Positions 6,825 through 35,641 are shown, counted from the stretch's first letter. The stretch: 64,000 nucleotides of DNA from an uncultured Clostridia bacterium (GCA_964441745.1 CAYTYR010000003.1:35348-99347), one strand, 5' to 3'. Notes: generated by a model from the letters alone, not told the origin. A program made the numbers and translations.

Positions 6825-8690
6825 TTATTTCACTGGTATACTAAAAGTAAATTTGGTACCTTTTCCCGTATCGCTATCAATAGCGATCGTACCGCCATGC
6901 ATTTCCACTAATTCTTTACAAATGAATAATCCTAAACCGCTGCCACCCCGGCCGGCGCTGAATTGCTGGAACCGGCCAAAGACTTTGCCTAAATTCTCCT
7001 TGGCTATACCTACACCGGTATCCTGGATAGTCACATAAATCTTGTTCTCCTCCGGCTGACTGTAGGTAGCCAAGGTAATCTGCCCTTCATCCGGGGTAAA
7101 TTTAATAGCATTACTGATGAGATTCATAATGATCTGGATGAATTTGTCATGGTCTACTTGCGTCTGGGGAATATTCCCAGGGATGGCTTTTAATTCCAGC
7201 TTTTTATTTTTAGCCCAGAGCTGGCTGGAATCAACAACTTTGAGCATTAATTCGTTAAGATCAGCCGGGGCTAACTTCAATTCCATCTTCCCGGATTCGA
7301 TCTTAGAAATGTCCAGCAAATCATTGATCAGTCTTTCCAGCCGGCTAATGCCTTCGCAAGCGTCTTTGAGAAAATCATCCTGATCGTGATTGAGCTCTCC
7401 GGCAATCTTATCCTTGACCATCAACACAGCTCCTTTGATCAAGGTTAAAGGAGAACGTAATTCATGCGAAACATGAGCTACGAATTTATCTTTCAACTGG
7501 TCTATTTCTTTTTGCTTGGTCACATCACTCAATACCGACACCGTACCAACGGTCATACCGCTGGTGTCTTCAATGATAGCGCTGGAGGCGCGCAGGATTT
7601 TCCTGGTATTTTCCTGCCCGTGCACCACTATTTCCTCTACTTTGTCTCCCTGGTCACCGGTACTGATCTCTTTACTGAACGAGGCTATTTGGTGTTCACT
7701 AATATTCTCGGAGATATGCTTACCGGCCACCTTGTCTTTGGGCTTACCCAGCAATTTCTCAGCAGCTTCATTAATAAAGAGCACCTTCCCCTCTTTGTCC
7801 ACTACGACTAGTCCATCGGATATACTACGCAGGATTCGCTCGGTTTTTTCCTTTTCCCGGACCAGTTTCTTTTTATCTTGGACTAACTCATTAACCGCTT
7901 CATGTACTTTTTGCTGCATCGTCTCGTCAAATTGCTTGGCTTTGGCTACCAGTTCTTTATATTCATCATAAGCGATCCTTTTCATCCGCCCGGCTTTTTT
8001 GACCACTGGTTCCATAGCACCGCCAAGTCCAGGTCCTAATCCCGGACCGAGACCAGGACCTAATCCAGGGCTTAACCCAGATCCAAAACCTGTTCCTGTC
8101 CCTATACCAGTTCCACTTTCCGAACCTGTACCGCTCCATGCGTCTATTCCAGCGCCGATGATAGCAGGCCTGTTCCGCCTCTTTGGTTTATCGCCAGCCG
8201 GGGTAGTAGTGACCCTCTCACCTTTTTTCACTTGGACAAAAGTACTTTGATTAACAATAATATGGGAGATATTCTTGTTTTTAAGTAATTGGTTTAGGCC
8301 GCCGTCCTTTACTGTTTTTTGCGGATCGCTCATGAACACTACAAATTCCTGCAATTCTGATTCAGGAACATTAGCCTCAATGGTCAAGCTTTCTACCATC
8401 AGGTGCTTCAAGGTCCCTTCCAGCAAGGCTGCGACTGGACCAGACTGTTCGGTCAGGTTGATATTTTCAATGATAATTTTCCCTTCGACGAAACCAATAG
8501 TAATTTCTTTGCGGCTGGTAAACAATTCTTGCAGTATGCCTTGCAGTTGCTTGAAGGAATCTTTGACAAAAGGATGATCAATAAAATACAGGCTGGTTTT
8601 GCGGATAGTAGAACCTAAAACCTTAGCGAGAGAGAGAAACCTGGCCAGGTCTTGCTCGCTGACTTGCGGCGTTTTATTTTCTTCAGCCAT
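6825..8690 (-). CDS. cytoplasmic sensor histidine kinase with PAS domain and Gly/Pro-rich linker
   Basis: 621 aa; H-box AHVSHELRSPLTLI, HATPase_c G-boxes (DTGVGI, GSGLGLFICK); PGLG repeats in linker; no clear TM segment. Confidence 0.85.
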   Translation of the reverse strand: MAEENKTPQVSEQDLARFLSLAKVLGSTIRKTSLYFIDHPFVKDSFKQLQGILQELFTSRKEITIGFVEGKIIIENINLTEQSGPVAALLEGTLKHLMVESLTIEANVPESELQEFVVFMSDPQKTVKDGGLNQLLKNKNISHIIVNQSTFVQVKKGERVTTTPAGDKPKRRNRPAIIGAGIDAWSGTGSESGTGIGTGTGFGSGLSPGLGPGLGPGLGPGLGGAMEPVVKKAGRMKRIAYDEYKELVAKAKQFDETMQQKVHEAVNELVQDKKKLVREKEKTERILRSISDGLVVVDKEGKVLFINEAAEKLLGKPKDKVAGKHISENISEHQIASFSKEISTGDQGDKVEEIVVHGQENTRKILRASSAIIEDTSGMTVGTVSVLSDVTKQKEIDQLKDKFVAHVSHELRSPLTLIKGAVLMVKDKIAGELNHDQDDFLKDACEGISRLERLINDLLDISKIESGKMELKLAPADLNELMLKVVDSSQLWAKNKKLELKAIPGNIPQTQVDHDKFIQIIMNLISNAIKFTPDEGQITLATYSQPEENKIYVTIQDTGVGIAKENLGKVFGRFQQFSAGRGGSGLGLFICKELVEMHGGTIAIDSDTGKGTKFTFSIPVK

Positions 8691-14810: not shown

Positions 14811-15158
14811 TTACCATCTCTTCCCGCCGCCACCGCCGCCGTAGCCGCCTCTGCCGCCGCCACCGCCGTAGCCGCCTCTGCCGCCACCACCATGTCTTCC
14901 ACCGCCGCCGCCTTCAGTCTTGGGGCGAGCTTCGTTGACATTCAGGTTCCGGCCTTTCAAGTCCTTGCCGTTCAAACCGGCAATAGCTGCCGTGCCTTCT
15001 TCTTTAGTCGGCATTTCTACAAAACCAAATCCTCTTGATTCACCGCTGAATTTATCCTTGATTATGGCGGCAGTAGCTACCTGCCCATAAGCAGCAAAGG
15101 CTTGTTTGAGATCCTCTTCAGTTACATCTCTTGACAGGTTCCCTACGTAAATGTTCAT
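14811..15158 (-). CDS. RRM-type RNA-binding protein with Gly-rich tail
   Basis: 115 aa; RNP2 IYVGNL and RNP1 RGFGFVEM; C-terminal GGGGRGGYGGG tail encoded by a 30-bp tandem duplication. Confidence 0.85.
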   Translation of the reverse strand: MNIYVGNLSRDVTEEDLKQAFAAYGQVATAAIIKDKFSGESRGFGFVEMPTKEEGTAAIAGLNGKDLKGRNLNVNEARPKTEGGGGGRHGGGGRGGYGGGGGRGGYGGGGGGKRW

Positions 15159-15267: not shown

Positions 15268-17856
15268 TTATTTTTCACCGGCTCCGGCAAAAAGGACAAC
15301 CTGCTGGGAGACAATGTCAGCCATCAGCCTGGCTTTTAAAGGCTGCATATCTACAATTTTAACTATGTCCCTGTATTTTTTATATTCCGGCGCAAGCTGT
15401 TCCAGCATATTTGGCAGCTTTTTTAATAAGATGCGGTCAAAGATCACGGCCTTCTGCTCGGTATAGATAGCCAGGTAGAATATTCCGGTTTCTACCAGGT
15501 CCTGAAAGAAATGTGATCCAAAAGATATCTCCGGAACTACGTTAGCACTGACAAAAGACAGTTCTCCCAGTACCGTCATATTATTTATCTCTGAGAAAGA
15601 TACTGGTACTCCGAGAGACGGGGTGGTCGTACCCCAACGGCCCGGGCCAAGCAACATGACCGCCATCTTATCCCTATCTTCGATCTGCCGGTTGATCACT
15701 CCGATAAGCCTGGCGATATCGTATTTCTCGGTTTGGGACAGGGCATCGTACTTTTCCGGTTGTACATAGATGATCCGGTGGATATCCTGGGACGTATTGC
15801 CGCCTACAAAAGAACCCTGGACCGCGAGGATAATATTTTCTTTCTTAATATCCTTAGGGATAACAACTTTCCGGCCTATCCCTCTGCTCTGGTGGGGACG
15901 GCATTGCAGTAAATTGATCTGGAATCCGGTTTTATCCTTAAAATTGACGGTAAATTCGATATCTACCGGGTACTGGTACGCTGCTTCCAGGAGTTTCAGG
16001 ATCTGGTGCATCGTATGCACGAACGCTGTATCTTTCAACAGTTCATCAAAGGTGATCAACCAGGCTTGCCGGTCTTCCTGGCCCATTTCCCGCAAGCGGA
16101 GCAGCGCTTCTTCATCTGGTTCAGCGATATGCGCCAGGTTGAGATCCGCGTCTTCGGTCAATACTTCATTGATCGACTTGGTTTGCAGGGTATTTTCCAC
16201 TACATTGATCAGATCGATCTCATGCTGGGAAAAGCGCTGGGCATTCTTCATCCCCTGGTATGGTTTCAATAATGGGGCATCTAAGGCAACGATACGCGGA
16301 TAATCTCCTTCTACCCGGTTCACAGCCCTGGTTCCGAGCCCGAAGACCAGGCGTAACATGCCTGCCTGAGGGTCCATTTCCTTTTTCCAGATATAGGTAT
16401 TATAGGAAATGCCTACTCCGGCTACATCAGGGAAGAAATACTTCTGATGATAGGAGCCGGAAACCCGCTGTACCAGGAGAGCCATCTGCTCATCCTGCTG
16501 GTCCAGTCCCCGTTGCAAACGATAGGTTAAAGCATCCACATTCATGGTACTGGCATATACTTGCTTCACGGTATCCAGGAAATGCTTGTATCGTTCCTCA
16601 GGAGTACCCTGATTAGCGCAAAAAATACTTTCGTATTTACCGGCAAACGCGTTCCCATAGGCATCTTCCAGCAAGCTGCTGGAACGGACAATAAACGGCG
16701 ACTGGCCAAAATATTCGATCATCGAATGGAATTGCTCTTTTATTTCTTCGTTAAAATCACCGGTCAGGAATAATTCCCGTAACTGGGCCGCGGCTGGGAA
16801 ATAACCTTCCTTGGTTTTTTGCTCCATGCGTTTTTTCCACCAGCCGTTTTGGACGATATAGGTGTAAAACACGTCTGAACCGATGTAATAGGAATCATGC
16901 GGTTCCAATTTTTTTTGCCAGGTATGGTCATTATTCGCCAGGACCTTTCTGGCCAACAGCATGCCTACGGCTTTGCCGCCGATGAAACCGGTACCGATCA
17001 ACCGGGACTTGATGCTGACCAGGTCTTCGAGCCGGAAATTCTTTCTAGTTAATTCTAAAATGCGTTCATCCCTGGCCATCATGATCTTCAGCAGGCGGTC
17101 GATCATTTCTGCCTGTTCTTTTTTCCTGGTTTCAGCGCCGATCAATTCCTCAGCCCGTAAAAATAACAGGTCCCAGTAATCCAGGTTCCGCCGGGCGCTT
17201 TTCGCGCCCTGGGTCCCCAGGAAAGAAAATAGTTTAGCCACATCCACGCTGTTGGTTAAGGGCGTGAATTGCTCGCCTTTCTGGACATGCGGCAGGAACA
17301 TGGTCGGGGAATAGCGGTTCCACACCTTGATCGGATGCACAAAATATTTATCCTCGTATTTATAGACATCGATCAACAGCTGGGTGATCTCCCGGATCCT
17401 GGCTACGGTACGGAAAGAATGTTTGTTGCGGATAATGCCGAAATAGGCGATAGTATTTAAAATAAATAAATAGGGGCAGGTGATCTTAAAAAAATTGCCG
17501 ATCATCAGGTCTGTCGCCCAGGCGCTCAGGAGCTCGGAAAGGCAGTCAAAGACATAATAGACCCCTTCTCCCTCTTCCCCGATGATCTTATTAAGTTGTG
17601 TAGAAAAAGATTCAAAACCGCTATAGGCATCCAGTTTATATGTAACTATGTGTTTCCCGGCCGGGAGCAGTGGTTTATGCTTGGCAAAACGGATATAGAC
17701 CACTCTTTTATGGTCTTTGATGGCCTGCTGTACAAAAGGAGTGACAAAATGCTGGTAGTCTTCGATCGTATCTACCTGCCAGACCACATTATCGCCAAGC
17801 TGTAACCCGGTGACCAGCTTATCTAAACCCCGCAATCCAGTCGTTATCCCACTCAT
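15268..17856 (-). CDS. PEP/pyruvate-binding (PPDK_N-like) domain protein with degenerate KaiC/RecA-like N-terminus
   Basis: 862 aa; GGKAVGM and RSSSLLEDAYGNAFAGKYES resemble PEP synthase / pyruvate phosphate dikinase nucleotide-binding domain; sits 28 nt downstream of res. Confidence 0.55.
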   Translation of the reverse strand: MSGITTGLRGLDKLVTGLQLGDNVVWQVDTIEDYQHFVTPFVQQAIKDHKRVVYIRFAKHKPLLPAGKHIVTYKLDAYSGFESFSTQLNKIIGEEGEGVYYVFDCLSELLSAWATDLMIGNFFKITCPYLFILNTIAYFGIIRNKHSFRTVARIREITQLLIDVYKYEDKYFVHPIKVWNRYSPTMFLPHVQKGEQFTPLTNSVDVAKLFSFLGTQGAKSARRNLDYWDLLFLRAEELIGAETRKKEQAEMIDRLLKIMMARDERILELTRKNFRLEDLVSIKSRLIGTGFIGGKAVGMLLARKVLANNDHTWQKKLEPHDSYYIGSDVFYTYIVQNGWWKKRMEQKTKEGYFPAAAQLRELFLTGDFNEEIKEQFHSMIEYFGQSPFIVRSSSLLEDAYGNAFAGKYESIFCANQGTPEERYKHFLDTVKQVYASTMNVDALTYRLQRGLDQQDEQMALLVQRVSGSYHQKYFFPDVAGVGISYNTYIWKKEMDPQAGMLRLVFGLGTRAVNRVEGDYPRIVALDAPLLKPYQGMKNAQRFSQHEIDLINVVENTLQTKSINEVLTEDADLNLAHIAEPDEEALLRLREMGQEDRQAWLITFDELLKDTAFVHTMHQILKLLEAAYQYPVDIEFTVNFKDKTGFQINLLQCRPHQSRGIGRKVVIPKDIKKENIILAVQGSFVGGNTSQDIHRIIYVQPEKYDALSQTEKYDIARLIGVINRQIEDRDKMAVMLLGPGRWGTTTPSLGVPVSFSEINNMTVLGELSFVSANVVPEISFGSHFFQDLVETGIFYLAIYTEQKAVIFDRILLKKLPNMLEQLAPEYKKYRDIVKIVDMQPLKARLMADIVSQQVVLFAGAGEK

Positions 17857-17884: not shown

Positions 17885-20535
17885 CTACAATAAATCTTCC
17901 ACTTTAGTCACCACTTTATACTCAACATCCTTAAATTCCTTAAAATGGGCTTCCCCGCACTTGATCTTCATTCTCTCTTCCGGATATAATTCATTCATTT
18001 CCCGGGTTGATTTCGTCTCCGCCACGAAATACAGCTTCTTCTCCCCTTTAAAGATCAAGGCCCAATCGGGGTTATAACTGCCCAAGGGCGTCTTTATCTT
18101 GAACCAGGCAGGGAGTTTTATGTAGAACTCAACATTATCGTTAGTCTCGCAATCACTGGCGAACCGTTTTTCCGGTTCGCTCATTGAATCTATAGAAATA
18201 TAATTAGCTATAGTTTTATCCTGCTTTGATACTTGATAGAGATTCTTTCTATATGCCTCCACCTCATTGTCTTCGAATAATCTCATCTCATATTCAATAC
18301 CATTGATCTTTTCATATTTTATCCCATCCACAATCATTTCGGCTAAGACATTCTTTATCTCCGCTGTCGCCATATCCATGAACATTTGAGGATTTCTCAA
18401 GATATCAACCAGCCGGCCAGAGCCTTTCAATATCCGCAAGATCGTTGATCGGGTTAATTCGGTTCTCGATTGTATATATCCCAGCACATCCGGGACATCA
18501 AACAAAGGATTTTCAACCTGAGTTATTCCCACACCCTTCTGCACTCCGGTTAATCCTTCTCTGACGACCTGCATTCCCGTTTTAACATACTTAATGATCG
18601 GCTTGCGCACCGCAGGCATATTCTTTATCTCTTTGACCGACGCTTCTATAAGCTTTTCAGTATCGAAATCAATATTATAAGTTGTTTTATGTTTTATTTT
18701 GTCCCATAGCTCCTTAAACTTCTCATCAAACTGGTAATTTTTTCTTAACCGCACTTTCACCCTTTCGTTCTTATTTCTTATCCTCTCCTTGAATTCGACT
18801 CCGCAATCCTCTTCCATTTCTTTCTGTAACTCTGCAGCGAATTCCTCGTAACTTTCATTGGCAATAACCGTCAACCTGTTAGTGTTCTTATCCTGGATCC
18901 TGTCGCCTTGCTGATCCACGCAAAGCCGCAATCCCCTGCCAATTTCCTGCCTCTTTTTCATCTCGGATCTCGTCTCGTTCAGAGTGCATATCTGGAAGAC
19001 ATTGGGGCTATCCCAGCCTTCTCTTAAAGCAGAATGACTGAATATAAATCTTAGAGGATTATTAATATCGAGAAGTCGTTCTTTATCCTTCATTATCAAC
19101 CTGTATGTATCATCATCTGCCAGGGTTTCCCTGGATTCAGAAGAATCTTTAAAGATCCCTTTTTTGTCCTGCGCGAAATAGCCGTTATGAACGACTTCAG
19201 ATTGAAAAGGGATAACTCCCTGATATTCTTTTTTCCCCGCTATTTCCTTGAATATTTCTTCAAACCAGAGGGCAAATTTTCCTTTCGCAGGGTTCCCCGC
19301 CTCATCATAACTGCGGTAGTTGGCTACCCTGTCTATAAAGATAAGCGAAAGGACTTTTATTCCTTTTTCTTTATATTTTTTCTCTTTCTGGAAGTGTTCT
19401 TCCACAGTCTTCCTGATCTGGACCTTCATAACTTCATCCAGCAGGCCGCCCCTCTGCTCTCCAACCGCCAGTATCTCTCCATTGGAGAGCTCAACCTTGC
19501 CTTCCCCCACGTCTATGGCATTAATAATATATCCTTCCCGGTAAAGCTCTCTTTTATTTGATTTTTCATACAAGTCATCTCCAACCTCAACATTCACTGT
19601 TTTCCTGATTATTCCATTCTCGCCAAGGGTATCCAAGCTTATTTTTGCCAGAGTCTTTGTTTTCTTGGCCTTAATATCTTCAACCTTCAGAAAAGCCTGA
19701 TTACTGCTATTCTCGGCAAAAATTGAATCAACTTCTATCTGTTTGACTAATCCCAGATCATAAGCTTTGACAGGATTAAGGCTGTAAACAAGGTTATACA
19801 GATTTGCGTGAGTAGCAGAATAGCGGAGAGTGCAGGCAGGATTCAGATTATCTATGGCCTTTTTCCTTATTTCCGTTTCCATGTTCTGAGGTTCATCAAC
19901 AATGACTATGGGATTCGTCGCCTGTATGAATTCTATCGGTTTCTTCCCGGTTAGTTTATCATTAAACTTATTAATAACATTCACGTCCTTGGCAAATGAA
20001 TCAATATTGATGACCAATATCTGAATGTTATTGTTTAGAGCGAAATTCCTTAAAAGGGATATTTTCCCCGGATCATACACGTTGAATGTCGCCGGTTGTT
20101 TCTCATACAAAGACTGGAAATGGTCATGGGTTATCTCAAGGTTCTTAATAACTCCTTCTCTTATGGCGATGCTGGGGACTACGATTATAAACTTTTTGAA
20201 TCCATAGCGTTTATTAAGCTCATATATGGTCCGCAAATATACATAAGTCTTTCCTGTACCTGTCTCCATTTCCACTGAGAAATTAAGACCTTGCAGGTAT
20301 TCCGCTTCTTTGAGCCCATTTTTCCGCTGAATTGCCTGAAGATTTGCTAATATTTGCGCTTCTTCCAAAACTATCCCATTTCCAACACCGTTTTCAGACA
20401 GCATATAGCCGCTATTGGGAGACAAAGAAAATTCATAATCGCTCTTATTTAAAGGCTGCCCCTCGAACAGGTCAACTATGGAGTTAATAGCGTCTATCTG
20501 ATACTGCTGGTTTGGATCAAAATGGAGTTTCATTA
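17885..20535 (-). CDS. res: Type III restriction enzyme, Res subunit (helicase-nuclease)
   Basis: Walker A METGTGKTYVY, motif II VIVDEPQNM, C-terminal nuclease region; real start is ATG at 20533-20535 (MKLHFDPNQQYQ) with AAGGA SD, not the upstream in-frame start at 20668. Confidence 0.9.
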
Positions 20536-20543
20536 TTATCCTT

Positions 20544-21275
20544 CTATTTAAACATCCGCAGATAATCTTTCTGTGTTTCCCTGACCATACGGGCAATAAG
20601 ATCAACAAAATCCCGATCGTTTCCGTCTCGCGCTGTTTCCAAAGAAGCGATATATTCCTGCCTGACAATGGGCGGGATTATGGTTATAACATAACCTTCC
20701 TGCATTAAAATAGTGTTCATCAGCAGCCGCGCCACTCTGCCGTTACCATCCAGGAAAGGATGAATAAAAACAAATTCTTTATGAGCCAATGCCGCGAACT
20801 CCACCGGGTGTTTTTGCCGGCGCAGTCTGCCTAATTTTGGCGGCAATCGTTTCATCAACACTGGTAATTCCGCCGGTAAGGGCAAGGGATACTTGGAACC
20901 TGTAATAATAGCTCTTACCTTCCGATACTCACCGGCATTTTCCCGATCTATTCGATAATAGAAAAGCCGGTGCAAATCTTTTATCCCGCGTTCGGTTACG
21001 GTTTTTTTCCTGGCCAGTTCATACATAAAGTCATAGGCTTCGCTATGCCCGGCTGCTTCGTAATGATCTCTTAATGGTTTACCGCCAATGGTAATACCGT
21101 CTTCAATAACCACCTTAGTCTCAGATTCTGTTAAGGAATTACCTTCAAGAGCGTTACTGGCATAGGTTAACCCTATGCGGAAATATTCTTTTGTTTGCTC
21201 TAACAAATGCTTATCCAAAGGCCGGCGCTTGTTTATCTCTGCCTGTAATTTATCTATTTCCTGATAAATAGTCAT
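20544..21275 (-). CDS. fic: Fic family protein
   Basis: 243 aa; canonical Fic motif HPFLDGNGRVARLL; AAGGAG SD 7 nt upstream; stop is 9 nt before the res ATG. Confidence 0.85.
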   Translation of the reverse strand: MTIYQEIDKLQAEINKRRPLDKHLLEQTKEYFRIGLTYASNALEGNSLTESETKVVIEDGITIGGKPLRDHYEAAGHSEAYDFMYELARKKTVTERGIKDLHRLFYYRIDRENAGEYRKVRAIITGSKYPLPLPAELPVLMKRLPPKLGRLRRQKHPVEFAALAHKEFVFIHPFLDGNGRVARLLMNTILMQEGYVITIIPPIVRQEYIASLETARDGNDRDFVDLIARMVRETQKDYLRMFK

Positions 21276-21288
21276 TACTTAGCTCCTT

Positions 21289-21336
21289 TCAAAGCTCTAT
21301 CTGATACTGCTGGTTTGGGTCAAAATGGAGTTTCAT
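21289..21336 (-). repeat. R2: duplicated copy of res 5' end forming a 15-codon mini-ORF (MKLHFDPNQQYQIEL)
   Basis: ATGAAACTCCATTTTGACCCAAACCAGCAGTATCAGATAG matches the real res start (20497-20535) with one mismatch by eye, then diverges into the Fic RBS. Confidence 0.7.
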
Positions 21337-21369
21337 TATTTATTTCTCCAACTATTTCCAATATTCTTA

Positions 21370-21398
21370 TTGACATCATGGCGCCAATGCTGTAATAT
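21370..21398 (+). promoter_or_regulatory. consensus-like sigma70 promoter (TTGACA-17 bp-TAATAT)
   Basis: TTGACA at 21370-21375, 17-bp spacer, TAATAT at 21393-21398, in a 400-bp noncoding gap and pointing antisense to the RM operon. Confidence 0.5.
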
Positions 21399-21404
21399 TA
21401 TATT

Positions 21405-21550
21405 AGGCAATAATGCTAATAATTTTGGATCGGGGTGTCCCCGGTCGGTATTAATGAGCGGTAAGTCCGTTGTGAATTGTTCCAAGTGTTCCCTTCCATA
21501 GGTTGGCTATAGCTTGGACGCAACAAGTTCACAGGGCGCGCTCATTTTTT
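21405..21550 (+). ncRNA. candidate structured small RNA of about 145 nt, antisense to the Type III RM operon
   Basis: downstream of the promoter; local hairpin GATCGGGG-TGT-CCCCGGTC (21427-21446); long-range pairing AATGAGCG (21452-21459) with CGCTCATT (21538-21545) followed by T-run 21545-21550; only coding potential is a 15-aa ORF without SD. Confidence 0.35.
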
Positions 21551-21672
21551 ATTTTATGGCAATTTTGCCTTCATTACCCTTCCCATCACATGACCATCAC
21601 ATAAGATTTGCTTTATTTATCAACACATTTTGCCATTTAACAAATTCACACAAACTTACAATCACATAAACC

Positions 21673-23130
21673 TTAAGACCATATTGGTATATACTTAGCA
21701 TACTTTCTCGATTTATTCTCTGGATCAAAATCTTTAATTAATCTTGCTTTGATGGTATCAGCTATTATTCTTGAAACTATTGAGTAATTCTTTTCATCTA
21801 TTTTAAATCTTTCTCTTAGAGACTGATTGGTCATGTTACTATTTGAGACATATTTTAAGCAACAATGTTGATAACATGCTCTTATTTTATCATCTTTATC
21901 CATCTGCTTTAGAGTTTTATAAGAATACATAATAACCTTCAGAAAATTATCTCCCTCAATGAATTTCGGCGCAGGTAATTGATACTCCTCTACTTTATCA
22001 ATAACTTTATCAATACCGCTCCCTCTTTCTTCACAAATACCTGCCCTCCGCATAAAAGAAGCAACTTTCTCATTTCTTGACTGAGGATGATGGTCAATAA
22101 ACCTTAAAGTGCTAATTAACGGCTTTCCCGGATTAGTAATTTCAATTCTATCGTTAAATATTTCAATCATAGGCCCAGTGCCAATTTCATTAAAATCCTG
22201 ATGGATTAATGCATTGGCTACTAATTCTCTTATTGCTATTTCAGGATACATTTTTACTTCTTTTCTAAATGCTCTTCCTATTTCTTCATTTGCTTGCAAG
22301 TTATCATTAATATAATCAATTAATCCCTCAAATCCATTGGCATATCCTTTAGCCCCAATTTGTTCTTTTTTTGTATGTAATCTGTCATTACCCTTATATA
22401 TAATAACCCTGATTGCCTTCCTATTTAATCTTTCAAAATACGAAAGATTATTGGCTATCAAAATAGTGCCCAAATTAGTAATACTATGGCTATTTATTTC
22501 TTTAAGAATAAATCTTTCTCCTTCTAAATGTTTTAAAATAGCACTTTTATCAGCGGGTAAATTCGACTTCAATATCCTAAAATAACCTGGATAATCTAAT
22601 AATTCAAGTATTTTATCTTCATCCAATTCTTTCGCGGCTATGTCTTTTTCAAAACTATACGCTAGTGTTTTATTCCATATTTTTCTCGCTTTTTCTGGCA
22701 AGTCCTTTAATTTCTTTTTATAACTGCCAACTCTAATATACTCTGCCCCTTTAAAACCTACTGGCGTATTATGAGTAGCATTGATTTCAAACATTACAAC
22801 AGGAACCCCTTCATACTCAAATTCATTAATTCTGAAATCAATTCTCGGACTTAGCAATCTAATTAACCAATTTTCTAATTCCTCATTACCGTTTTTTGTT
22901 TGGCTAGGCTTAAAATCTGTACCAACTACTTTATGGGTCTGATCTTCAATGCCAAAAACAAAATATCCATAGCTTCTATTATGTAAGCAAGCTGAATTAG
23001 ATAAAGCAGATATATACTCCCCAATTTCATCAAGTGAGCAACTTAAATTTTGCTTGAATTCCACCCACTCTGTTTCCTTTGGCAGCATTATAAGTTCTTT
23101 TAATTTATTCTTAAGATCATCTGTGTTCAT
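21673..23130 (-). CDS. AlbA_2 (Schlafen-like) plus HATPase_c_4 domain protein, putative nucleic-acid-binding ATPase/regulator
   Basis: 485 aa; N-terminal ETEWVEFKQ...FVFGIEDQTHKVVG resembles AlbA_2; C-terminal ALIHQDF...IEIFNDRIEITNPG resembles HATPase_c_4; start overlaps R1 mini-ORF stop (ATGA). Confidence 0.65.
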   Translation of the reverse strand: MNTDDLKNKLKELIMLPKETEWVEFKQNLSCSLDEIGEYISALSNSACLHNRSYGYFVFGIEDQTHKVVGTDFKPSQTKNGNEELENWLIRLLSPRIDFRINEFEYEGVPVVMFEINATHNTPVGFKGAEYIRVGSYKKKLKDLPEKARKIWNKTLAYSFEKDIAAKELDEDKILELLDYPGYFRILKSNLPADKSAILKHLEGERFILKEINSHSITNLGTILIANNLSYFERLNRKAIRVIIYKGNDRLHTKKEQIGAKGYANGFEGLIDYINDNLQANEEIGRAFRKEVKMYPEIAIRELVANALIHQDFNEIGTGPMIEIFNDRIEITNPGKPLISTLRFIDHHPQSRNEKVASFMRRAGICEERGSGIDKVIDKVEEYQLPAPKFIEGDNFLKVIMYSYKTLKQMDKDDKIRACYQHCCLKYVSNSNMTNQSLRERFKIDEKNYSIVSRIIADTIKARLIKDFDPENKSRKYAKYIPIWS

Positions 23131-23180
23131 TTTATTTCCTTTGATAGATATCGCTGGTTCGGATCAAAATGGAGCTTCAT
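23127..23180 (-). repeat. R1: diverged copy of res 5' end forming a 17-codon mini-ORF (MKLHFDPNQRYLSKEIK)
   Basis: ATGAAGCTCCATTTTGATCCGAACCAGCGATATCTATC resembles res start; its TGA overlaps the ATG of the 485-aa ORF. Confidence 0.65.
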
Positions 23181-23200
23181 GAAGCAGCCATATATTTTCC

Positions 23201-25084
23201 TTATATGGTTCTGAATTCTATTCCTGCGTCTTTCATTTGCAGGACGGTATTTGTTTTAAGCTTGTCATTGCCGGCAAATAAGGAATCCAGGCACAGGCAT
23301 TTGGCAGGCTTTTGTTTGACTATTTCCTTGATCAGCTTGCTGTTTACCTCAGATAGAATAACAACCATTTCGCCGTTATTTACCGTATAAATCGGCGCAC
23401 CGTCTATTTTTTCTTCTTTCGCGACCGTATTCAGGCCGTAACCGGTTTTCAGAAGTATTTCCCATAGCATATTGGTTTGTTTTGCCTTAGGTTTAACCGG
23501 ATACTCAAAAGCATCCATCTGCTTCTTAAGTTCAGCTTCCTCTGTTATGACATCATTTCGCCAAATCTTAAAATTGGATAGCTTCAGCTTATATACTTTG
23601 AATCCCAGGTCTATTTCTTTAGGCCGCTCTTCCTTGCCTATCTGTTTAATTGCTCTGCGAATTCTTTCTTTGGCGATATCTGCTATGGTTTTATACCCGG
23701 CCTTATAAGCTTCTGTTTCTGCTTCAGTTTTTTCCGGAAGCTGGACGCAGATAAACTTTCTATTCCCCCCATCTTCCTTGTTTAAATCTAAAACAGCATG
23801 AGCAATAGTTCCGGACCCAGCAAAAAAATCAAGAATAATATCATCAGATTCAATACCGGTTATTAATTCTATTAGTTTTTTCATTAATCTTACAGGTTTA
23901 GGTGTATCAAAATACGATTCACCATTAAAAATTTCTTTAATCTCTCGTTTTGACTCCTGATTATCTCCAACTATATCTCTTGTCCATAGAGTTATGGGAG
24001 TAACTGAAGTTTTTACCTCTGATAAAAATCTTTTTTGTCTCGGAATATTGTCTCCATACTCTCCAAACCATATACGATTATCTTTTAGAAGCTCACTAAA
24101 TTTTCTCTCACTAACAACCCAACATCTTCCTTTTGTCGGAAAAACTTTCCTTCCGCTTGGTAAAATTATGGGATATAGTTTTTCCTTGATTTCTGGCCCC
24201 ACCGTTAAATCACCTGATGACCAAGGGCCTCTTAAATCATTATCAGGATTATGATATCTTGAATTAGTTTCTTCTGTTCTTTTTAACCCCAGCACACCTA
24301 GTTTTTCTACATTTTTTGCATAAACTAAAATATAATCATGACTCGTTGAAAATGTGGTTTTTAAATTAATGGGCGAAAATGCTTTCTCCCAAATTATACT
24401 TGCCACAAAATTCTCTTCTCCGAATATCTCATTCATTAACAGCCTGAGATTATGGACTTCATTGTCATCTATGGAAACAAAAATAACTCCGTCTTCACAG
24501 AGCAGATTTCTGGCGAGGAACAGTCTTGGATACATCATGGAAAGCCAATTGGAATGGAAATGGCCATTTTCTTTGTTATTTTTTCTAAATAGCCCTTCCT
24601 TCAACAGATAGCCTTCTTCGTCCTTTTCCCCTATTCTTTTCAGATAGTCTTCTTTGGACTCGGAAAACCGGTCAGGATAGATAAAATTGTCATTGCCGGT
24701 ATTGTAGGGCGGATCGATATAGATCATCTTGATCTTGCCATAGTAGGCTTTCTGCAGGACTTTCAAGACTTCGAGGTTTTCCCCTTCAATGAATACATTG
24801 CCTGTTTTATCAAAATTGACGGATTCTTCAGGGCAAGGAGCCAATGTAGCAGTTGTAGGAGTTTGCAGGACCTTAAAAGCTTCGGACTTACCGGCCCAAT
24901 TAAGGACATATCGCTCATTCTCCAGGGATAGCTCTTCACCTAAAGTAAGCTTGAGCTTCTCCTGATCTATTTTCCCTTCGCTGAATACCTCTGGAAAAAG
25001 TTCTTTTAGTTTCTTTACTTTATCCTTTTTCACATCTACCGATTTTCCATCCATTCCTGTCTCCTCTATTACAAACTTATTCAA
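23201..25084 (-). CDS. mod: Type III R-M Mod subunit, N6-adenine DNA methyltransferase
   Basis: 627 aa; DPPY motif in MIYIDPPYNTG; AdoMet-binding DFFAGSGT; overlaps upstream Fic gene by 8 nt. Confidence 0.9.
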   Translation of the reverse strand: MNKFVIEETGMDGKSVDVKKDKVKKLKELFPEVFSEGKIDQEKLKLTLGEELSLENERYVLNWAGKSEAFKVLQTPTTATLAPCPEESVNFDKTGNVFIEGENLEVLKVLQKAYYGKIKMIYIDPPYNTGNDNFIYPDRFSESKEDYLKRIGEKDEEGYLLKEGLFRKNNKENGHFHSNWLSMMYPRLFLARNLLCEDGVIFVSIDDNEVHNLRLLMNEIFGEENFVASIIWEKAFSPINLKTTFSTSHDYILVYAKNVEKLGVLGLKRTEETNSRYHNPDNDLRGPWSSGDLTVGPEIKEKLYPIILPSGRKVFPTKGRCWVVSERKFSELLKDNRIWFGEYGDNIPRQKRFLSEVKTSVTPITLWTRDIVGDNQESKREIKEIFNGESYFDTPKPVRLMKKLIELITGIESDDIILDFFAGSGTIAHAVLDLNKEDGGNRKFICVQLPEKTEAETEAYKAGYKTIADIAKERIRRAIKQIGKEERPKEIDLGFKVYKLKLSNFKIWRNDVITEEAELKKQMDAFEYPVKPKAKQTNMLWEILLKTGYGLNTVAKEEKIDGAPIYTVNNGEMVVILSEVNSKLIKEIVKQKPAKCLCLDSLFAGNDKLKTNTVLQMKDAGIEFRTI

Positions 25085-26198
25085 AAAGTTTCACATAACC
25101 TTGATAAGCATATACTCGGTTTCTCCTTTGCCCCGTTAATTCTTTTAAAATATCTAATTTAAGCAGTTTTTTAGTCAAGACAATAGCATTGGGATTGGCT
25201 AATCCTGTTATTTGTTCAATATCTTTTATTCTTACCAAGGGCTTTTTATATAATGCGTTAAGCAAAACCATAGCTTTTTCTGAGCGGCCCATGCTTACCA
25301 CTTTCTCTATATCCCTCTGCCTCAGCTTATGGATTTTTCTGGCAGTTTCTACCGCTCTCTCGGCAGTGTCGATTACTCCTGATAGGAAAAATATAAGCCA
25401 TCCTTCAAGATCATCTTTCTCCCGAGCGGTATCAAGCTTATCATAGTAATCTTGCCTGAAACGCTTAAAAAACTCTGATATACACAAAAGTGGTTTATGG
25501 AGAATCTTCTGCTGGCATAAATAAAAAGTAATGAGCAATCTCCCAATTCTGCCGTTTCCATCCAGAAAAGGATGTATCGTTTCAAACTGGTAATGTATTA
25601 ATCCAATTTTAATAAGTACTGGCAAAGGCGCCACATCATGTATAAAACTCTCTAAATTTCCCATTAAGGCTAATACTTCATGCGCTGGGGGTGGAACAAA
25701 AGAGGCGTTTTGCAAAGTCACTCCCCCTATCCAATTCTGGGAGGTTCGAAATTCACCCGGATATTTTCCTTCTCCTCTGACTCCTTTTAGGAGAATGGCA
25801 TGTATTTCTTTAATGAGCCGCAAGGAAAGAGGAAGTGTTTCAAGGCGTTCCAGCCCGTAATCCATAGCTTTTATATAATTCAATATTTCTTCAACATCTT
25901 TATGTATTTCAAAATCTTCCAATTTTGCTTCTGCTTTGAGAACATCAGAAAAAGTAGCTTTGGTGCCTTCTATTTGACTGGAAAGAGCCGCCTCCTTCTT
26001 TATATACATAAAAATAAAGAAATTAACATCTGGCAATACATCAGCAATCCCATCCAATCGACCTAAAGCCAGATCCGCTTTCGAAAGAAGATCCTGCAAT
26101 AAATAATCTTGCTTAATATTAAAAGGCAAGCGGTTAGGTATAAAAGCCTTATATTGCAAATCTCCTTTTAACTGATTAACATAATTCCCTGTTCTCAT
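25077..26198 (-). CDS. fic: Fic family protein with C-terminal winged-helix-like domain
   Basis: 373 aa; Fic motif HPFLDGNGRIGRLL; first gene of the RM operon. Confidence 0.85.
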   Translation of the reverse strand: MRTGNYVNQLKGDLQYKAFIPNRLPFNIKQDYLLQDLLSKADLALGRLDGIADVLPDVNFFIFMYIKKEAALSSQIEGTKATFSDVLKAEAKLEDFEIHKDVEEILNYIKAMDYGLERLETLPLSLRLIKEIHAILLKGVRGEGKYPGEFRTSQNWIGGVTLQNASFVPPPAHEVLALMGNLESFIHDVAPLPVLIKIGLIHYQFETIHPFLDGNGRIGRLLITFYLCQQKILHKPLLCISEFFKRFRQDYYDKLDTAREKDDLEGWLIFFLSGVIDTAERAVETARKIHKLRQRDIEKVVSMGRSEKAMVLLNALYKKPLVRIKDIEQITGLANPNAIVLTKKLLKLDILKELTGQRRNRVYAYQGYVKLFE

Positions 26199-26204
26199 AA
26201 CACC

Positions 26205-26335
26205 TCAACCGTAGATAAGATTTTTAATAACTACGATATCATTATAATTCGTAGATAGTAATTTGTCAAGTTTTTTTAATCGTAGATTAGACTAAAATTA
26301 TCTATGATAATTATTAATATCATAGATTATAGCTA
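26205..26335 (-). promoter_or_regulatory. promoter/operator region of the Fic-mod operon with iterated YRTAGATW repeats
   Basis: at least six copies in both orientations (CGTAGATAAG, CTACGATATC, CGTAGATAGT, CGTAGATTAG, TATCTATGATA, CATAGATTAT) within about 130 bp. Confidence 0.45.
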
Positions 26336-30664: not shown

Positions 30665-33340
30665 TTACAGCGACAGGGTAAACAGGTTCATTAATTTATC
30701 ATTGTTCATTTCGGTTATCCAGGCCTCGTTTGAGCTTTGGATGATTTCGTTTGACAAGTGTGTTTTTTCCTCAAGCATGGCGTCAATCTTTTCTTCCAGT
30801 GTGCCTCTGGTGATAAACTTATGCACCAGAACATTTTTTTTCTGGCCTATCCGGAAGGCTCGATCGGTGGCCTGGTTTTCCACTGCCGGATTCCACCACC
30901 GGTCAAAATGAATAACCTGGCTTGCCGCGGTCAGATTTAAACCGACTCCCCCGGCCTTAAGCGATAATACCATAAAAGGAACATATTCATGACTTTGAAA
31001 CTTTTCTACGATTTCCCGGCGTTTTTTAACCGGCGTACCGCCGTGGAGGACCAAACCCTGATGCTTAAAGATTGTTTCCAGATATTCCTTGAGCGGTCCG
31101 GTAATTTCCTTGAATTGCGTAAATACTAAAACCTTCTCTCTTTTTTCATAAATTGTTTCACAAATTTCGCGCAACCGCTGAAATTTGCCGCTGTCCGGTT
31201 CGCCATATTCATTCCTGCCCAAATATTGATCCGGATGATTGCAAAGCTGTTTAAACTTCATCAACGAAGCCAGAATCAGTCCTTTGCGCTTAATCCCCCC
31301 GGGTTCCTCTTCCAGCGCGGCTTTTAGTTCCGCCACAAGATTACCGTAAAGAACAACTTGTTTTTTGCTTAAATCCGCGTAAGTTTTCATCTCGACTTTC
31401 TCCGGCAGATCGGAAATAACAGACTTATCGGTTTTCAATCTTCTTAAAAGAAACGGCGCCGTAATTTTCTTCAGCCTGGCGTAACCGCCTGGATGGTCTT
31501 TTAATTCCTTAGAAAAATCGGAAAATTCTTTGCTGCTGCCGAGCATCCCGGGATTTAAAAAATCAAATAACGACCAAAGATCGCCTAAATTGTTTTCAAT
31601 CGGCGTGCCGGTCATAATTATTCTATTGTTGGCCTGCAAATTTTTAACTGCTTTGGTTTGTTTTGTGCCGGGATTTTTAATGGCTTGCGCTTCATCTAAA
31701 ATAACATAATTCCATTTGCGCGCTTTAAGCCAATCATACCTTTTGATTAAAGCATAAGTTGTTATAATAAGATCGTATTTGCCGCTAAAATCCTTGTCCC
31801 GACCGGCCTCGCCGCTATTTTTCTCAAACGAAGGATGAGCGATATAATACCTAATCTCCGGCGAAAATCGGCCTATTTCGCTAATCCAGTTAGAAATCAG
31901 GGAAGCGGGTATGATCAGCAGGCTGGCCGGATTTTGCCTGCTTGTTTTCAGCGTATTTAAGAAAGCCAACAGTTGTATTGTTTTCCCCAGCCCCATATCG
32001 TCGGCCAGACAGGCGCCAAACTGCAAAGAATGCAGGAAATAAAGCCAGTTCAACCCTTTCTGCTGGTACGGCCGAAGTTCTGCCAGAAAGTTTTTGGCGG
32101 GAGTGATTGAATCAATCAGCTCAGGTTTGCGCAGTTTTTCCACCACCCCTTTAAGCCATTCCCCGTTGGAAATACCGGCAGTCTCTCCATCGCTAACCCC
32201 CAGTTCTTTTTGTAAATTAAGCTGCAGATACATGGCCTCTTTTAAAGTTAAAGCGCCTTGTTCCATCAATTGTTGCGCTTTTTTATAGGCTTCCAGAGTT
32301 TTTTCGAGTTTTTCCGGGTCCACCTCCACCCATTTCCCCTTAATAAACGCCAGCCCGGCTGATTCATTTAAAAGTTTTCTTGCCTCCTCTTCCGACAGCT
32401 CGCTGTCGCCGCATAAAAGTTGTGTATTAAAATCAAGCAGCGAATCCTGGCCGAGAAACGACGGCGCTATATTGCCGATCCTGATATCCAGCTTTAGAAC
32501 ACTTGTTCTGTTCTTCCACCAGTTGGGAATCCGGCAAAGTATGCCGGATTTTTCATAGAGAGGAATTTCCTTTAAAATATCATAGGCGTCTTTGGCCGAC
32601 AAGGCCAGCGGATGAAATATTTCCCCGTTTTCAATAAGCCCGGCAATGATCCGGCTGTCTTTGGCGGCTAAATAAACAGTGGCCAAAAGTTCCAGCAGTT
32701 TTTTGTTGTTTTTGCCGTATTCGGTTAAGGCATACTTTAAGGGAATATGCTTGGCTTTCCCCTGCTCGTTTAAGCCGGTAGAATAGGTGGCTAAAAAAGC
32801 AAAAGGAAACTCCTCTTTTTTACTTTCCACCAAATGAAAATAAACCCGTCCGGCCAGATGAACATCAGCGCTGAAAGTTTTAATAAAATCAGCAACGGAG
32901 CCTCTATAAGTTTTCACTTTATGGCTAAAGGTAAGGTTTAGCTTTGACCAAATATCTTTCAGAAAAGACGGGTTTACATACTCTGCCCCAACCATAAATG
33001 GCCGCCGGGACAGAAAATCGTCAATCTCGTCAGTCGTTAAAACAAGCTCTACCCGCTCGCGCAAACCCTCAAGATCGGGTGTTTGCGCTAATTTTTTTAC
33101 ATACCTCTCCCCTAACTTTCTAAAAAATTCCAAACTTGCCGCTAACGGCACGGCTTGATTGCAAAATCCCAGCAACAGGAGAAAAGAGCCAAAGTCTTCC
33201 CGGTAGCTTTTGTATAATTCATTTTGCAGCAATTCCTGATCCTTGTTTAGCGGCTCTGCCCTGTCCTGCCATTCCAGTTCAATACTCTGACCCGGTAAAC
33301 AAACAACTGTTAATTCTTTATTCATTTTCTTTTTCCTCAT
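30665..33340 (-). CDS. SNF2-family helicase/ATPase
   Basis: 891 aa; motif I LADDMGLGKT, motif II DEAQAIKN, SNF2 block GTPIENNLGDLWSLFDF, C-terminal helicase domain. Confidence 0.85.
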   Translation of the reverse strand: MRKKKMNKELTVVCLPGQSIELEWQDRAEPLNKDQELLQNELYKSYREDFGSFLLLLGFCNQAVPLAASLEFFRKLGERYVKKLAQTPDLEGLRERVELVLTTDEIDDFLSRRPFMVGAEYVNPSFLKDIWSKLNLTFSHKVKTYRGSVADFIKTFSADVHLAGRVYFHLVESKKEEFPFAFLATYSTGLNEQGKAKHIPLKYALTEYGKNNKKLLELLATVYLAAKDSRIIAGLIENGEIFHPLALSAKDAYDILKEIPLYEKSGILCRIPNWWKNRTSVLKLDIRIGNIAPSFLGQDSLLDFNTQLLCGDSELSEEEARKLLNESAGLAFIKGKWVEVDPEKLEKTLEAYKKAQQLMEQGALTLKEAMYLQLNLQKELGVSDGETAGISNGEWLKGVVEKLRKPELIDSITPAKNFLAELRPYQQKGLNWLYFLHSLQFGACLADDMGLGKTIQLLAFLNTLKTSRQNPASLLIIPASLISNWISEIGRFSPEIRYYIAHPSFEKNSGEAGRDKDFSGKYDLIITTYALIKRYDWLKARKWNYVILDEAQAIKNPGTKQTKAVKNLQANNRIIMTGTPIENNLGDLWSLFDFLNPGMLGSSKEFSDFSKELKDHPGGYARLKKITAPFLLRRLKTDKSVISDLPEKVEMKTYADLSKKQVVLYGNLVAELKAALEEEPGGIKRKGLILASLMKFKQLCNHPDQYLGRNEYGEPDSGKFQRLREICETIYEKREKVLVFTQFKEITGPLKEYLETIFKHQGLVLHGGTPVKKRREIVEKFQSHEYVPFMVLSLKAGGVGLNLTAASQVIHFDRWWNPAVENQATDRAFRIGQKKNVLVHKFITRGTLEEKIDAMLEEKTHLSNEIIQSSNEAWITEMNNDKLMNLFTLSL

Positions 33341-33456
33341 ATTTGATCTGTTCCATGTTGTTTATTCATATCCGGACACCAGCGTGGACCCAGCATGACC
33401 TATATATCCACATATTCTCAACCGATTCTCAACCGCGTAGGTTGAGGATTGGTTAT

Positions 33457-34602
33457 TCAAACTTCACCTGCATTGCTTACTATCTTGAAATCAACCCCCA
33501 GTTCTTCAAAATGTTTTTTCCCGCAGTGAACTTTATCCGCTTCGTCCGGGCGCAATTTGGCAAGGTCGGCAAATGCCTTTGTTTCCCTTACCAAATACAA
33601 CGTTTGATCACCCTGCTTAACGATTGCCCAATCCGGATTATATGTCCCCAGCGGCGTGGTTACCTTAAACCAGTCCGGCAGCTTAACAAATAATTTAATA
33701 TCCTCACGGCTATCTAAGGCCTGCGCAAAGCGGCGCTCAACGTCAGAATCAAACTCAACCGCATCATAGACCGATTTACCAACGTCCACCTAGAACAGAA
33801 GCCACCTCGATACATTTGACCAACCGCATATCGTATGCTTTGACCGGATCCAACTTATATAGAAGGTTATACGGATTCACATGCGTAGCGGAATAACGAA
33901 GCGTACATAAAGGATTTAATGTTTCGATCGCTTCCTTGGCTTTGTCGGTGTTGTCAACGCTCTGCGGCTCATCGATAATCACAATCGGATGCGTCGCTTG
34001 AATAAACTCGATCGGCTTACGCCCGGAAAAACGATCGTTTTCCCTATGGATAACATTACTCTTCTTCTCATCATCCTTGTCCTCAAGCGTCTTGATTACT
34101 CGTAGCAAACTGCCGTACCTGACTGACCTTCTTGGAATCATACACAAAATAATCGAACGCCACGTTATTGTATAAATGTAAAAAGTGGTCGCGCGTAATA
34201 TCAATGTTTTTGAGAACACCCTCCCGGATAGCAACACTGGGAACAACGATAACAAATTTCTTAAAGCCGTATTTCTTGTTCAGCTCGAAAATAGATCGCA
34301 AATAAACATACGTCTTGCCGGTGCCGGTTTCCATTTCCACAGAAAAATGCCTCCCCTGCAAGACGCCAACCTTCTCAATCTCGTCTTTCTCCTGAATCTT
34401 CCAAACGTTATCCAGAAGCTTCTCATTATCCAGCACAAGGCTATTTCCAACGCCCAACTCTCGAAGCTCAAGAAGCCCGTAAGCTGTAGTAAAACTAACC
34501 TCAAAGTCCGCTCCCGGTCAAAGGCTGGCCGTCAAATACGCTGACCACAGCATTAACGGCATTAAGTTGATATTGTTGATTGGGGTCAAATTTTAATTTC
34601 AT
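33457..34602 (-). pseudogene. res: decayed Type III res gene (frameshifts plus large internal deletion)
   Basis: three ORF fragments in different frames match res 17885-20535: N-terminus MKLKFDPNQQYQL then stop after 33 codons, Walker A METGTGKTYVY fragment, DEPQ fragment, C-terminal nuclease fragment; about 1.1 kb versus 2.65 kb for the intact gene. Confidence 0.8.
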
Positions 34603-35591: not shown

Positions 35592-35641
35592 TAATAATCC
35601 CCTCTTTCTCTAACCCAACAGCTAAAGAATTACCGGCATTT

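Follow-up and report, generated by a model that had tools for sequence, protein, structure and literature searches.

Why should the first bases of a restriction gene be repeated in front of each of the genes that separate it from its methyltransferase partner? The question is raised by a stretch of 64,000 nt from an uncultured Clostridia bacterium (GCA_964441745.1 CAYTYR010000003.1:35348-99347), which we call the window and whose positions serve as coordinates here, on the minus strand unless stated otherwise. It contains a Type III restriction-modification (R-M) operon whose order, 5' to 3', is a SoFic-type gene, mod, a copy of the res start (R1), a gene for a Schlafen/AlbA_2 ATPase (with a DUF3800-V small RNA gene on the opposite strand), a second copy of the res start (R2), a Fic gene, and res itself. 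An earlier reading of the sequence, referred to below as the original prediction, had seen in these copies a resemblance to a cassette-exchange site at the mod/res junction. On balance, we favor a different explanation: that R1 and R2 are res 5' stubs left when cargo genes were inserted successively upstream of res by ordinary recombination, and that they would later have served as portable homology and probably as leader open reading frames (ORFs).

Results

Copies of the res Start in the Window

The 41 nt that begin res (ATGAAACTCCATTTTGATCCAAACCAGCAGTATCAGATAGA, 20493-20533) recur at 21296-21336 with one mismatch, and this sequence had 0 matches in 100 shuffles. For a codon-degenerate 27-mer, shuffles predicted 0.00 matches, and the sequence has exactly four, each on the minus strand; their ATGs lie at 20533, 21336, 23180, and 34602. 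The claim that the res start occurs three times in the first locus holds, at a level far beyond chance, except that the true res ATG is at 20533 and not at 20535. As had been described, one of the two extra copies is nearly perfect and the other is more diverged. In the repeat search, R2 (21296-21340) agreed with res (20493-20537) at 44 of 45 nt, among them the four bases AATA just before the ATG, and nucleotide alignment showed that R1 matches res over a 34 nt core (23147-23180) with four mismatches and diverges thereafter. R2 may be a recent local duplication, and R1 may be older, or derived from another res allele. The identity of the window stubs falls with distance from res (R2 98%, R1 88%); such a gradient is not clear in L061, a locus described below that has three stubs, and so we did not take it as evidence. 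The source sample, SRR13007705, has also been assembled independently in Logan, and that assembly agrees base for base over 20982-23511, which includes both R1 and R2.

Both copies form mini-ORFs of the kind originally predicted. The R1 mini-ORF (23127-23180, MKLHFDPNQRYLSKEIK) ends in a TGA that overlaps the ATG of the 485-aa AlbA_2 gene (21673-23130), and the stop of the R2 mini-ORF (21289-21336, MKLHFDPNQQYQIEL) is followed by an AAGGAG Shine-Dalgarno (SD) sequence and, 13 nt after, by the ATG of the Fic gene (20544-21275). Past the mod stop and ahead of R1, a micro-ORF can be read from the sequence, MAAS and a stop codon (ATGGCTGCTTCATGA, 23177-23191). An SD sequence, AAGGAA, precedes this micro-ORF by 6 nt, and the TGA at its end overlaps the ATG of R1. 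mod, MAAS, R1, and the AlbA_2 gene form a relay of overlapping stops and starts.

The site at 34602 belongs to a second Type III locus, where it had been noticed in an ATGA overlap with the stop of rhuM. The overlap is present, but the sequence (encoding MKLKFDPNQQYQL) is an ordinary res start; it is evidently the genuine start of a decayed res and no extra stub, and there is no stub upstream of rhuM at this locus.

res Stubs in Other Type III Loci

We scanned one genome per species with a degenerate res start and obtained at least 120 loci; the counts that follow hold for the loci listed. A Type III mod lies upstream on the same strand in 74 of 120, directly adjacent to res in 23 of these 74 and separated from it by cargo in 51. 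In this one Type III family, which is widespread, the slot between mod and res is hypervariable, and cargo is the rule. Where mod and res are adjacent, the distance from mod stop to res ATG is -4 to +12 nt in 22 of the 23 loci, with a 112 nt spacer in the other, and thus there is virtually no neutral space for insertion.

Stubs were detected with a nucleotide scan for a second copy of each locus's own res start and with a profile of Res N termini. They were found upstream of res in L008, L016, L035, L042/L077, L044/L107, L045 (which is also L007), L061 (three copies), L078, L096, L106, and L116. Among the 51 cargo loci, about 11-13 have res 5' stubs on the same strand, and the survey of homologous loci that had been proposed with the original prediction turned up at least 13 loci besides the window in which such stubs accompany varied cargo. 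The hosts span many phyla and include Elusimicrobia, Gammaproteobacteria, Bacteroidota, Scalindua, Saccharibacteria, Neomarinimicrobiota, and others, and the genes behind the stubs encode AlbA_2 ATPases, Fic proteins, YhcG/DUF1016 nucleases, Bro-N and DUF1828 proteins, an AAA_14/DUF4143 ATPase, HicAB, and RhuM. Every stub lies on the res strand and 5' of res; opposite-strand copies gave no significant match in the loci scanned.

The profile added stubs that are unlike the neighboring res allele, for example in L042, L077, and L044. In L042, a stub that begins MILHFDPNRQYQID stands ahead of a res that begins MKLKFDPNQDF; such a difference between a stub and the adjacent res fits replacement by a foreign res rather than simple local duplication.

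Apparent 16 nt stubs in L004 and L070 (LKLQFEG...) were rejected, as they are an internal AlbA_2/HATPase_c_4 segment and score below the opposite-strand null. Viral contigs scanned with the degenerate res-start pattern gave no matches. A strict 28-mer scan of metagenome contigs gave six loci with Res 54-70% identical, three of which have cargo and none a stub, and in protein searches, which for Res gave roughly 8000 homologs, the only identical match to the window proteins was from the same sample.

Structure of the Stubs

Stub homology begins at the res ATG, within 4 nt in most cases, and ends after 11, 17, 22, 25, 25, 28, 32, 33, 34, 41, 44, 79, or 111 nt. The overall range is 11 to ~130 nt, and the longer stubs are those of L016 (~79-100 nt), L106 (111 nt), and L107/L044 (~100-130 nt). 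Among 17 tabulated copies, the start codon is ATG in 13 and TTG in three, and it has been lost in one (L096, ACG). The ten short stubs that we tabulated are all mini-ORFs of 11-17 codons, and where the cargo start can be placed, the mini-ORF stop either overlaps it (ATGA) or precedes the cargo ATG by up to ~30 nt. This is the geometry of a leader ORF, in which the start codon is kept and an in-frame stop overlaps or just precedes the downstream start, and it makes translational coupling of the cargo by such leaders plausible.

In four other loci (L005, L014, L101, and L098), res itself is truncated to a 5' stub and is followed by unrelated genes. We read these stubs as plain deletion scars.

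An Allelic Series in Elusimicrobia

The closest Res relatives, which are 70% identical to the Res of the window, include those of three Elusimicrobia contigs, L137, L138 (which is also L061), and L139 (also L025). In all three, res is followed by genes for CinA, LigT, a deacetylase, RuvX, and YceG, and because res precedes the same housekeeping genes, we treat the contigs as alleles of one chromosomal slot. L137 has mod, a 174-aa gene, DarT/Macro, and res, with no stub. L138 has a 1014-aa methylase, a 224-aa gene, a stub, YhcG, a stub, Bro-N, a 13 nt stub, and res, and L139 has mod, a 212-aa gene, a gene fragment, a stub, AlbA_2, and res. When these contigs and L045 are compared, nucleotide identity of 85-89% is regained 1-8 nt before the res ATG (36 nt for L139 versus L045), and it is lost at the mod stop in L138/L139 and L139/L045, the pairs in which both loci include the mod stop. 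A conserved res stands beside a variable array, and homology between alleles breaks at the edge of res.

A block consisting of a stub, a 23 nt linker, and AlbA_2 is common to L139 and L045, where it lies behind different upstream genes, and the same stub and linker also precede YhcG in L138 and L045. In L045, an AlbA_2 cassette of the L139 type, together with its 3' flank, seems to have been joined to a YhcG/Bro-N array of the L138 type at res-start sequence, and a small repeated element would have struck later. The series is our best evidence that res-start homology is used in stacking or exchanging cassettes, with which it fits, and the presence of units of stub and cargo in different Elusimicrobia contexts is in keeping with the originally predicted recombination within the res 5' end. 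Cargo is present in four of the five loci L137-L141, a small sample for which the res start played no part in the choice, and stubs are present in two of the four.

The same contigs showed three further features. The repeated element in L045 resembles a miniature inverted-repeat transposable element, with about four copies (7198-7247, 7684-7780, 8189-8286, and 8565-8612) and a 98 nt core of 99% identity; it truncated the YhcG and Bro-N cargo genes, it adjoins the res-start stub at the same position twice (...GGTAGG, then TTGAACC), and it may target res-start sequence. An 81 nt fragment common to L139 (3244-3324) and L137 (912-992) is the C terminus of a gene (...GLAKVKIDQFVN.IIDQTINRILK and a stop codon) whose stop overlaps the res stub (ATGA) in L139 and is directly followed by DarT in L137; a gene that once occupied the slot has evidently left a further scar here. 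Finally, a ~1014-aa Eco57I/MmeI-like methylase, a ~222-aa protein, and a Res-like helicase-nuclease recur together in L061/L138 (317-4028), L078 (1144-4849), and L033 (957-1625). The ~222-aa protein is conserved and has no Pfam match, and the stop of its gene overlaps the res start or stub (ATGA).

Genes of the Operon

All of the relevant genes of both Type III loci are on the minus strand. Mod (617 aa, 23201-25054) is an N6/N4 DNA methyltransferase (Pfam N6_N4_Mtase PF01555, E=3.8e-37; PADLOC MTase_III, 716 bits, full length). Res (882 aa, 17885-20533) combines a superfamily 2 helicase (Pfam ResIII and DEAD) with a C-terminal endonuclease domain (RE_endonuc) and matches PADLOC REase_III with 1000.7 bits. 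By these sequence criteria for its two subunits, the operon is a Type III R-M system. The two genes lie on the same strand, mod before res, with 2.67 kb of cargo between them, whereas they are directly adjacent in the 23 cargo-free loci.

The first cargo gene encodes a Schlafen AlbA_2 protein with an HATPase_c_4 domain (Pfam). In a composition profile, its GC content is 0.29-0.33, compared with 0.38-0.45 in the flanks, and because it is below that of its neighbors, we judged the gene foreign. Its homologs in other genomes (61-69% identity) are stand-alone genes. The second cargo gene encodes a Fic/DOC protein of 243 aa (Pfam Fic; PADLOC candidate PDC-S04, 100 bits), and its homologs of 78-82% identity are found in non-R-M contexts. 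The sites of the closest ones are beside a Y1 transposase gene, after RhuM fragments, and inside an ispDF-cysS cluster; one of the two homologs at L132 139-1580 and L136 7001-7735 (78-82% identical) lies by an IS200/IS605-type Y1 transposase and the other between ispF and a hexapeptide-transferase/cysS cluster. The gene appears to move also as a single-gene passenger outside R-M loci. We considered whether this Fic gene always duplicates the start of its downstream neighbor and rejected the idea, as there is no such repeat beside its closest homologs.

The first gene of the operon encodes a SoFic-type protein of 373 aa (25077-26198; Pfam Fic_N and Fic; PADLOC SoFic, 397.6 bits, full length). 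Upstream of it is a near-consensus sigma-70-like promoter (TTGACA-17-TATAAT, 26269-26241, minus strand), surrounded by four or five ATCTACGA/TCATAGAT repeats (26216-26330, minus strand) that are operator-like in appearance. The operon from SoFic through mod and cargo to res may be autoregulated.

The DUF3800-V Small RNA Gene

According to the original prediction, the repeats delimit single cargo genes. A stub does precede each cargo gene between mod and res of this operon, but the interval between R1 and R2 also holds a small RNA gene on the opposite strand. The DUF3800-V RNA (Rfam RF02964, 21451-21548, plus strand) scored 71.5 bits against a gathering score of 37.4 and covers model positions 1-96 of 96. 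It lies in the 336 nt gap after the AlbA_2 gene and is convergent to that gene. A promoter scan found a promoter-like site for it (TTGACA-17-TAATAT, 21370-21398, plus strand), the end of which is 34 nt from the R2 ATG, and it ends in a terminator hairpin with a T-run after it. Should transcription of the operon read through into Fic and res, the RNA would be antisense to the transcript.

DUF3800 motifs were defined by their neighborhood of DUF3800-domain genes (PMC5737381). We found no such gene near this RNA among the 20 ORFs scanned, which are the 20 largest on the minus strand between 15268 and 39778, and a literature search found no later paper on the function of DUF3800 motif RNAs. The possibility that the RNA travels with the AlbA_2 family was rejected: Rfam gave no match beside the homologs in L128, L130, and L131, and 13 loci, stub-bearing or related, were likewise negative.

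The Second Type III Locus and Other Neighbors

The second Type III locus (33457-37563), 11 kb from the first and on the same strand, is decaying, as judged by Pfam, tblastn, and three-frame translation. Its mod is split into ORFs of 473 aa (36142-37563) and 145 aa (35642-36079), the latter corresponding to the Mod C terminus by tblastn. rhuM (34599-35591; PADLOC PDC-S05) stands in front of its res, fragments of which extend from the ATG at 34602 to 33457 (~1.15 kb) in four ORFs or frames and retain only N-terminal helicase and C-terminal endonuclease pieces. Beyond this res, in the region 30665-37563 (minus strand), is an intact SNF2 helicase that matches the ZorD and DpdE models with 432 and 391 bits.

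Downstream of the first locus, a gene for an 862-aa PPDK_N (ATP-grasp-like) protein (15268-17856, minus strand) begins 28 nt past the res stop, and PADLOC gave no match for the protein. A weakly similar PPDK_N-like gene comes after a res shortened to ~110 aa in L012 (1877-2305), hinting at a recurrent partner downstream of res. A repeat search also found 9 nt tandem repeats of GCCGCCNNN, in at least six in-register copies, outside the R-M operon (14826-14897, plus strand).

Discussion

How Stubs Could Arise and What They Could Do

An active res without mod is dangerous. As the two genes also nearly overlap, an insertion between them would survive only if both gene ends remained intact. We infer both the recombination route and the direction of events from the sequence patterns described above. 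An incoming segment of cargo plus res would pair with the resident res as a homologous anchor, and its other end would be joined, by an illegitimate event, to a point a few tens of bases into the resident res; equivalently, a small circle carrying cargo and a res start could be integrated by a single crossover. Joins that broke mod, or the stop of the gene preceding res, would be lost, and long truncated Res fragments would presumably be selected against, so that only short 5' stubs would survive. A dedicated recombinase would not be involved.

Once in place, a stub would provide 30-45 bp of portable homology to every res start that general recombination could use to stack arrays from different alleles, to move units of stub and cargo, or to delete cargo precisely. 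In the window, such deletions would be the loss of 803 bp with the Fic gene, between R2 and res, and the loss of 2647 bp with all of the cargo, between R1 and res. A stub that keeps the res start codon and stops at or just before the cargo ATG would also be a probable leader ORF, handing over ribosomes by termination-reinitiation and mimicking the tight coupling of mod and res in cargo-free operons. Insertion of this kind would account for the 5'-only stubs, scattered end points, direct orientation, homology that starts at the ATG, stubs that do not match the neighboring allele, and edges of variation at the mod stop and the res ATG.

Several observations weigh against this explanation. No stub could be detected in ~40 of the 51 cargo loci, where the ATG of the first cargo gene lies directly at the mod stop. 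It follows that most cargo exchange needs no stub and that any function of the stubs is dispensable. The original prediction had named cargo genes without flanking res-start copies in related genomes as the finding that would count against it, and this is what most related loci show, so that a stub is not a required insertion site. The proposal that cargo enters the mod/res junction through the res 5' end consequently keeps part of its force, as the joins do fall inside the first tens of bases of res where a stub is present, but it does not describe the stub-free majority.

Other points concern the window itself. The match between R2 and res extends to 4 nt before the ATG and is broken at one of 45 positions; a recent local duplication would account for this no less well than replacement of the allele. 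R1 lacks an SD sequence of its own, and that of R2 is 11 nt away. Leader regions had no significant RNA structure compared with shuffled sequence (z -0.4 to +0.2). The databases searched contain no close allele of the window locus (the best matches are 70% identical for Res, 82% for Fic, and 69% for the AlbA_2 protein), and for this reason its parental sequences and joints are not reconstructable. In addition, the bias toward short stubs is explained only by an assumed selection, and the Res N terminus, although conserved, ranks only 271st of 871 windows within the protein; this rank lends no support to the res start as the best conserved part of the gene and hence as a recombination hot spot.

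A broader version of the proposal would make res-start stubs a general, recombinase-free adapter. Any cargo that once came to lie before res would carry a res start, and every other res start would become a place at which host recombination could capture, stack, exchange, or precisely excise it, giving a self-organizing cassette array in which each stub also acts as a coupling leader ORF. We regard this as doubtful. If true, it would amount to integron-like diversification of defense genes that depends on only the first 30-45 bases of a gene.

Alternative Explanations

The strongest competitor holds that the stubs are neutral scars of recombination or deletion, with no meaningful cassette exchange and no effect on translation. 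The lack of stubs at most cargo loci, the scatter of stub lengths, the absence of an RNA structure signal in the leader regions, the loss of the ATG in L096, and the three TTG starts are all as this account would have them, and L005, L014, L101, and L098 show that res can be cut to a 5' stub with unrelated genes after it. However, it does not lead one to expect that the ATG would be kept in 13 of 17 tabulated copies, that in-frame stops would lie consistently at or near the cargo start, or that an ATGA relay would run ahead of R1. It also leaves aside the identical units of stub and linker found with different cargo and in different contexts, and the one array that resembles a stacked recombinant. 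We think a purely neutral origin possible but unlikely.

A second alternative is that each stub is the last remnant of a complete upstream res copy, from a tandem duplication or a second R-M system, that has decayed by deletion. The window does contain a decaying res, and the stubs of L016, L106, and L107/L044 are longer than the rest. But no internal or 3' res fragment was found between the stub and the intact res in 11 loci; a gradual decay of whole copies is disfavored by remnants that always come from the 5' end, and random loss would not always spare exactly the 5' end and nothing else. The decay that can be seen looks different: the res of the second locus keeps pieces along its whole length, including the C-terminal endonuclease domain. 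This explanation is improbable.

Less probable again is a dedicated, integron-like system of site-specific cassette exchange that uses the res start as its attachment site, which is where the original prediction pointed. Direct repeats do bound each cargo gene in the window and in L061/L138, the cargo units are ORF-sized and tightly packed, and the same stub and linker precede different cargo. Against this, we found no integrase or recombinase gene among the 20 window ORFs scanned or in the gene lists of L137-L141, the homology ends anywhere from 11 to ~130 nt into res instead of at a fixed point, the junctions give no hairpin or other structure signal, and most cargo loci lack the repeat. On these grounds, we do not regard the res start as a defined cassette-exchange site.

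Finally, although the conserved Res N terminus (MKLHFDPNQ) gives unrelated res genes similar first codons across phyla, chance, convergence, or an assembly artifact can practically be dismissed, because the 44 of 45 identical nucleotides span synonymous sites and four noncoding bases, no shuffle produced a match, the stubs are not joined to any res body, and the independent assembly agrees across R1 and R2.

Relation to Known Systems

Accessory genes of the PrrC, RloC, Fic/DOC, and RhuM classes are known inside R-M operons, mostly at Type I loci (PMC3710099). The cargo of the window belongs to known classes of this kind (SoFic, PDC-S04-type Fic, PDC-S05-type RhuM, and AlbA_2 ATPases), and so do the genes behind the stubs of the other loci. 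The literature names the embedded genes, whereas the window adds res 5' stubs in a Type III operon; in a limited literature check, we found no description of res 5' stubs flanking embedded genes in Type III operons.

The closest parallel to the arrangement, by analogy, would be the displacement arrays that are anchored by homology. Sequential displacement by illegitimate recombination that is facilitated by homology has been proposed for type VI secretion system (T6SS) effector-immunity clusters and for the orphan modules of Rhs and contact-dependent inhibition (CDI) loci, in which plain homologous replacement is the commoner, scar-free outcome (PMC5361080). Like the T6SS effector-immunity arrays of Vibrio cholerae and the Rhs/CDI arrays, the res loci have an anchor gene on one side, new modules beside it, scars of displaced genes, and growing arrays, and in the window and at least 13 other loci truncated remains of res are kept between the modules. 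The res arrangement is a mirror image, however, with the anchor downstream and scars that are the 5' starts of genes instead of their 3' ends. Its scars also keep a start codon and form putative leader ORFs, and it is located in an R-M operon rather than at a toxin locus.

With integron cassettes, the arrays share promoter-less, ORF-sized units in one orientation that are bounded by repeats and served by an upstream promoter. They differ from the integron (attI/attC, IntI) in that there is no integrase in the ORFs scanned, no attC-like folded site, and no fixed crossover, and the repeat is the start of the neighboring gene. The ATGA overlaps at MAAS/R1, R1/AlbA_2, and rhuM/res of the second locus, and the -4 to +12 nt spacing of mod and res where cargo is absent, recall known cases of translational coupling and leader ORFs. 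In contrast to a purpose-built regulatory peptide, a res leader is a fragment of the neighboring gene, and its translation is putative.

Significance

At stake is how defense genes can enter and leave an operon without wrecking two tightly coupled and potentially lethal partners, mod and res. The variation between alleles is bounded by the res start codon and, in comparisons that reach the mod stop in both alleles, by that stop as well. A minority of arrays, though a recurring one, retain res 5' stubs, which would record successive insertions beside res. The pattern, as far as comparison of sequences goes, is real and recurrent, and it is dispensable in most loci; its functional side is putative. 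If the stubs act as portable homology and as coupling leaders, they would provide a simple mechanism for the modular turnover of defense genes, as well as a sequence signature with which new embedded defense genes could be found. If they are only scars, they would still mark the order and origin of acquisitions.

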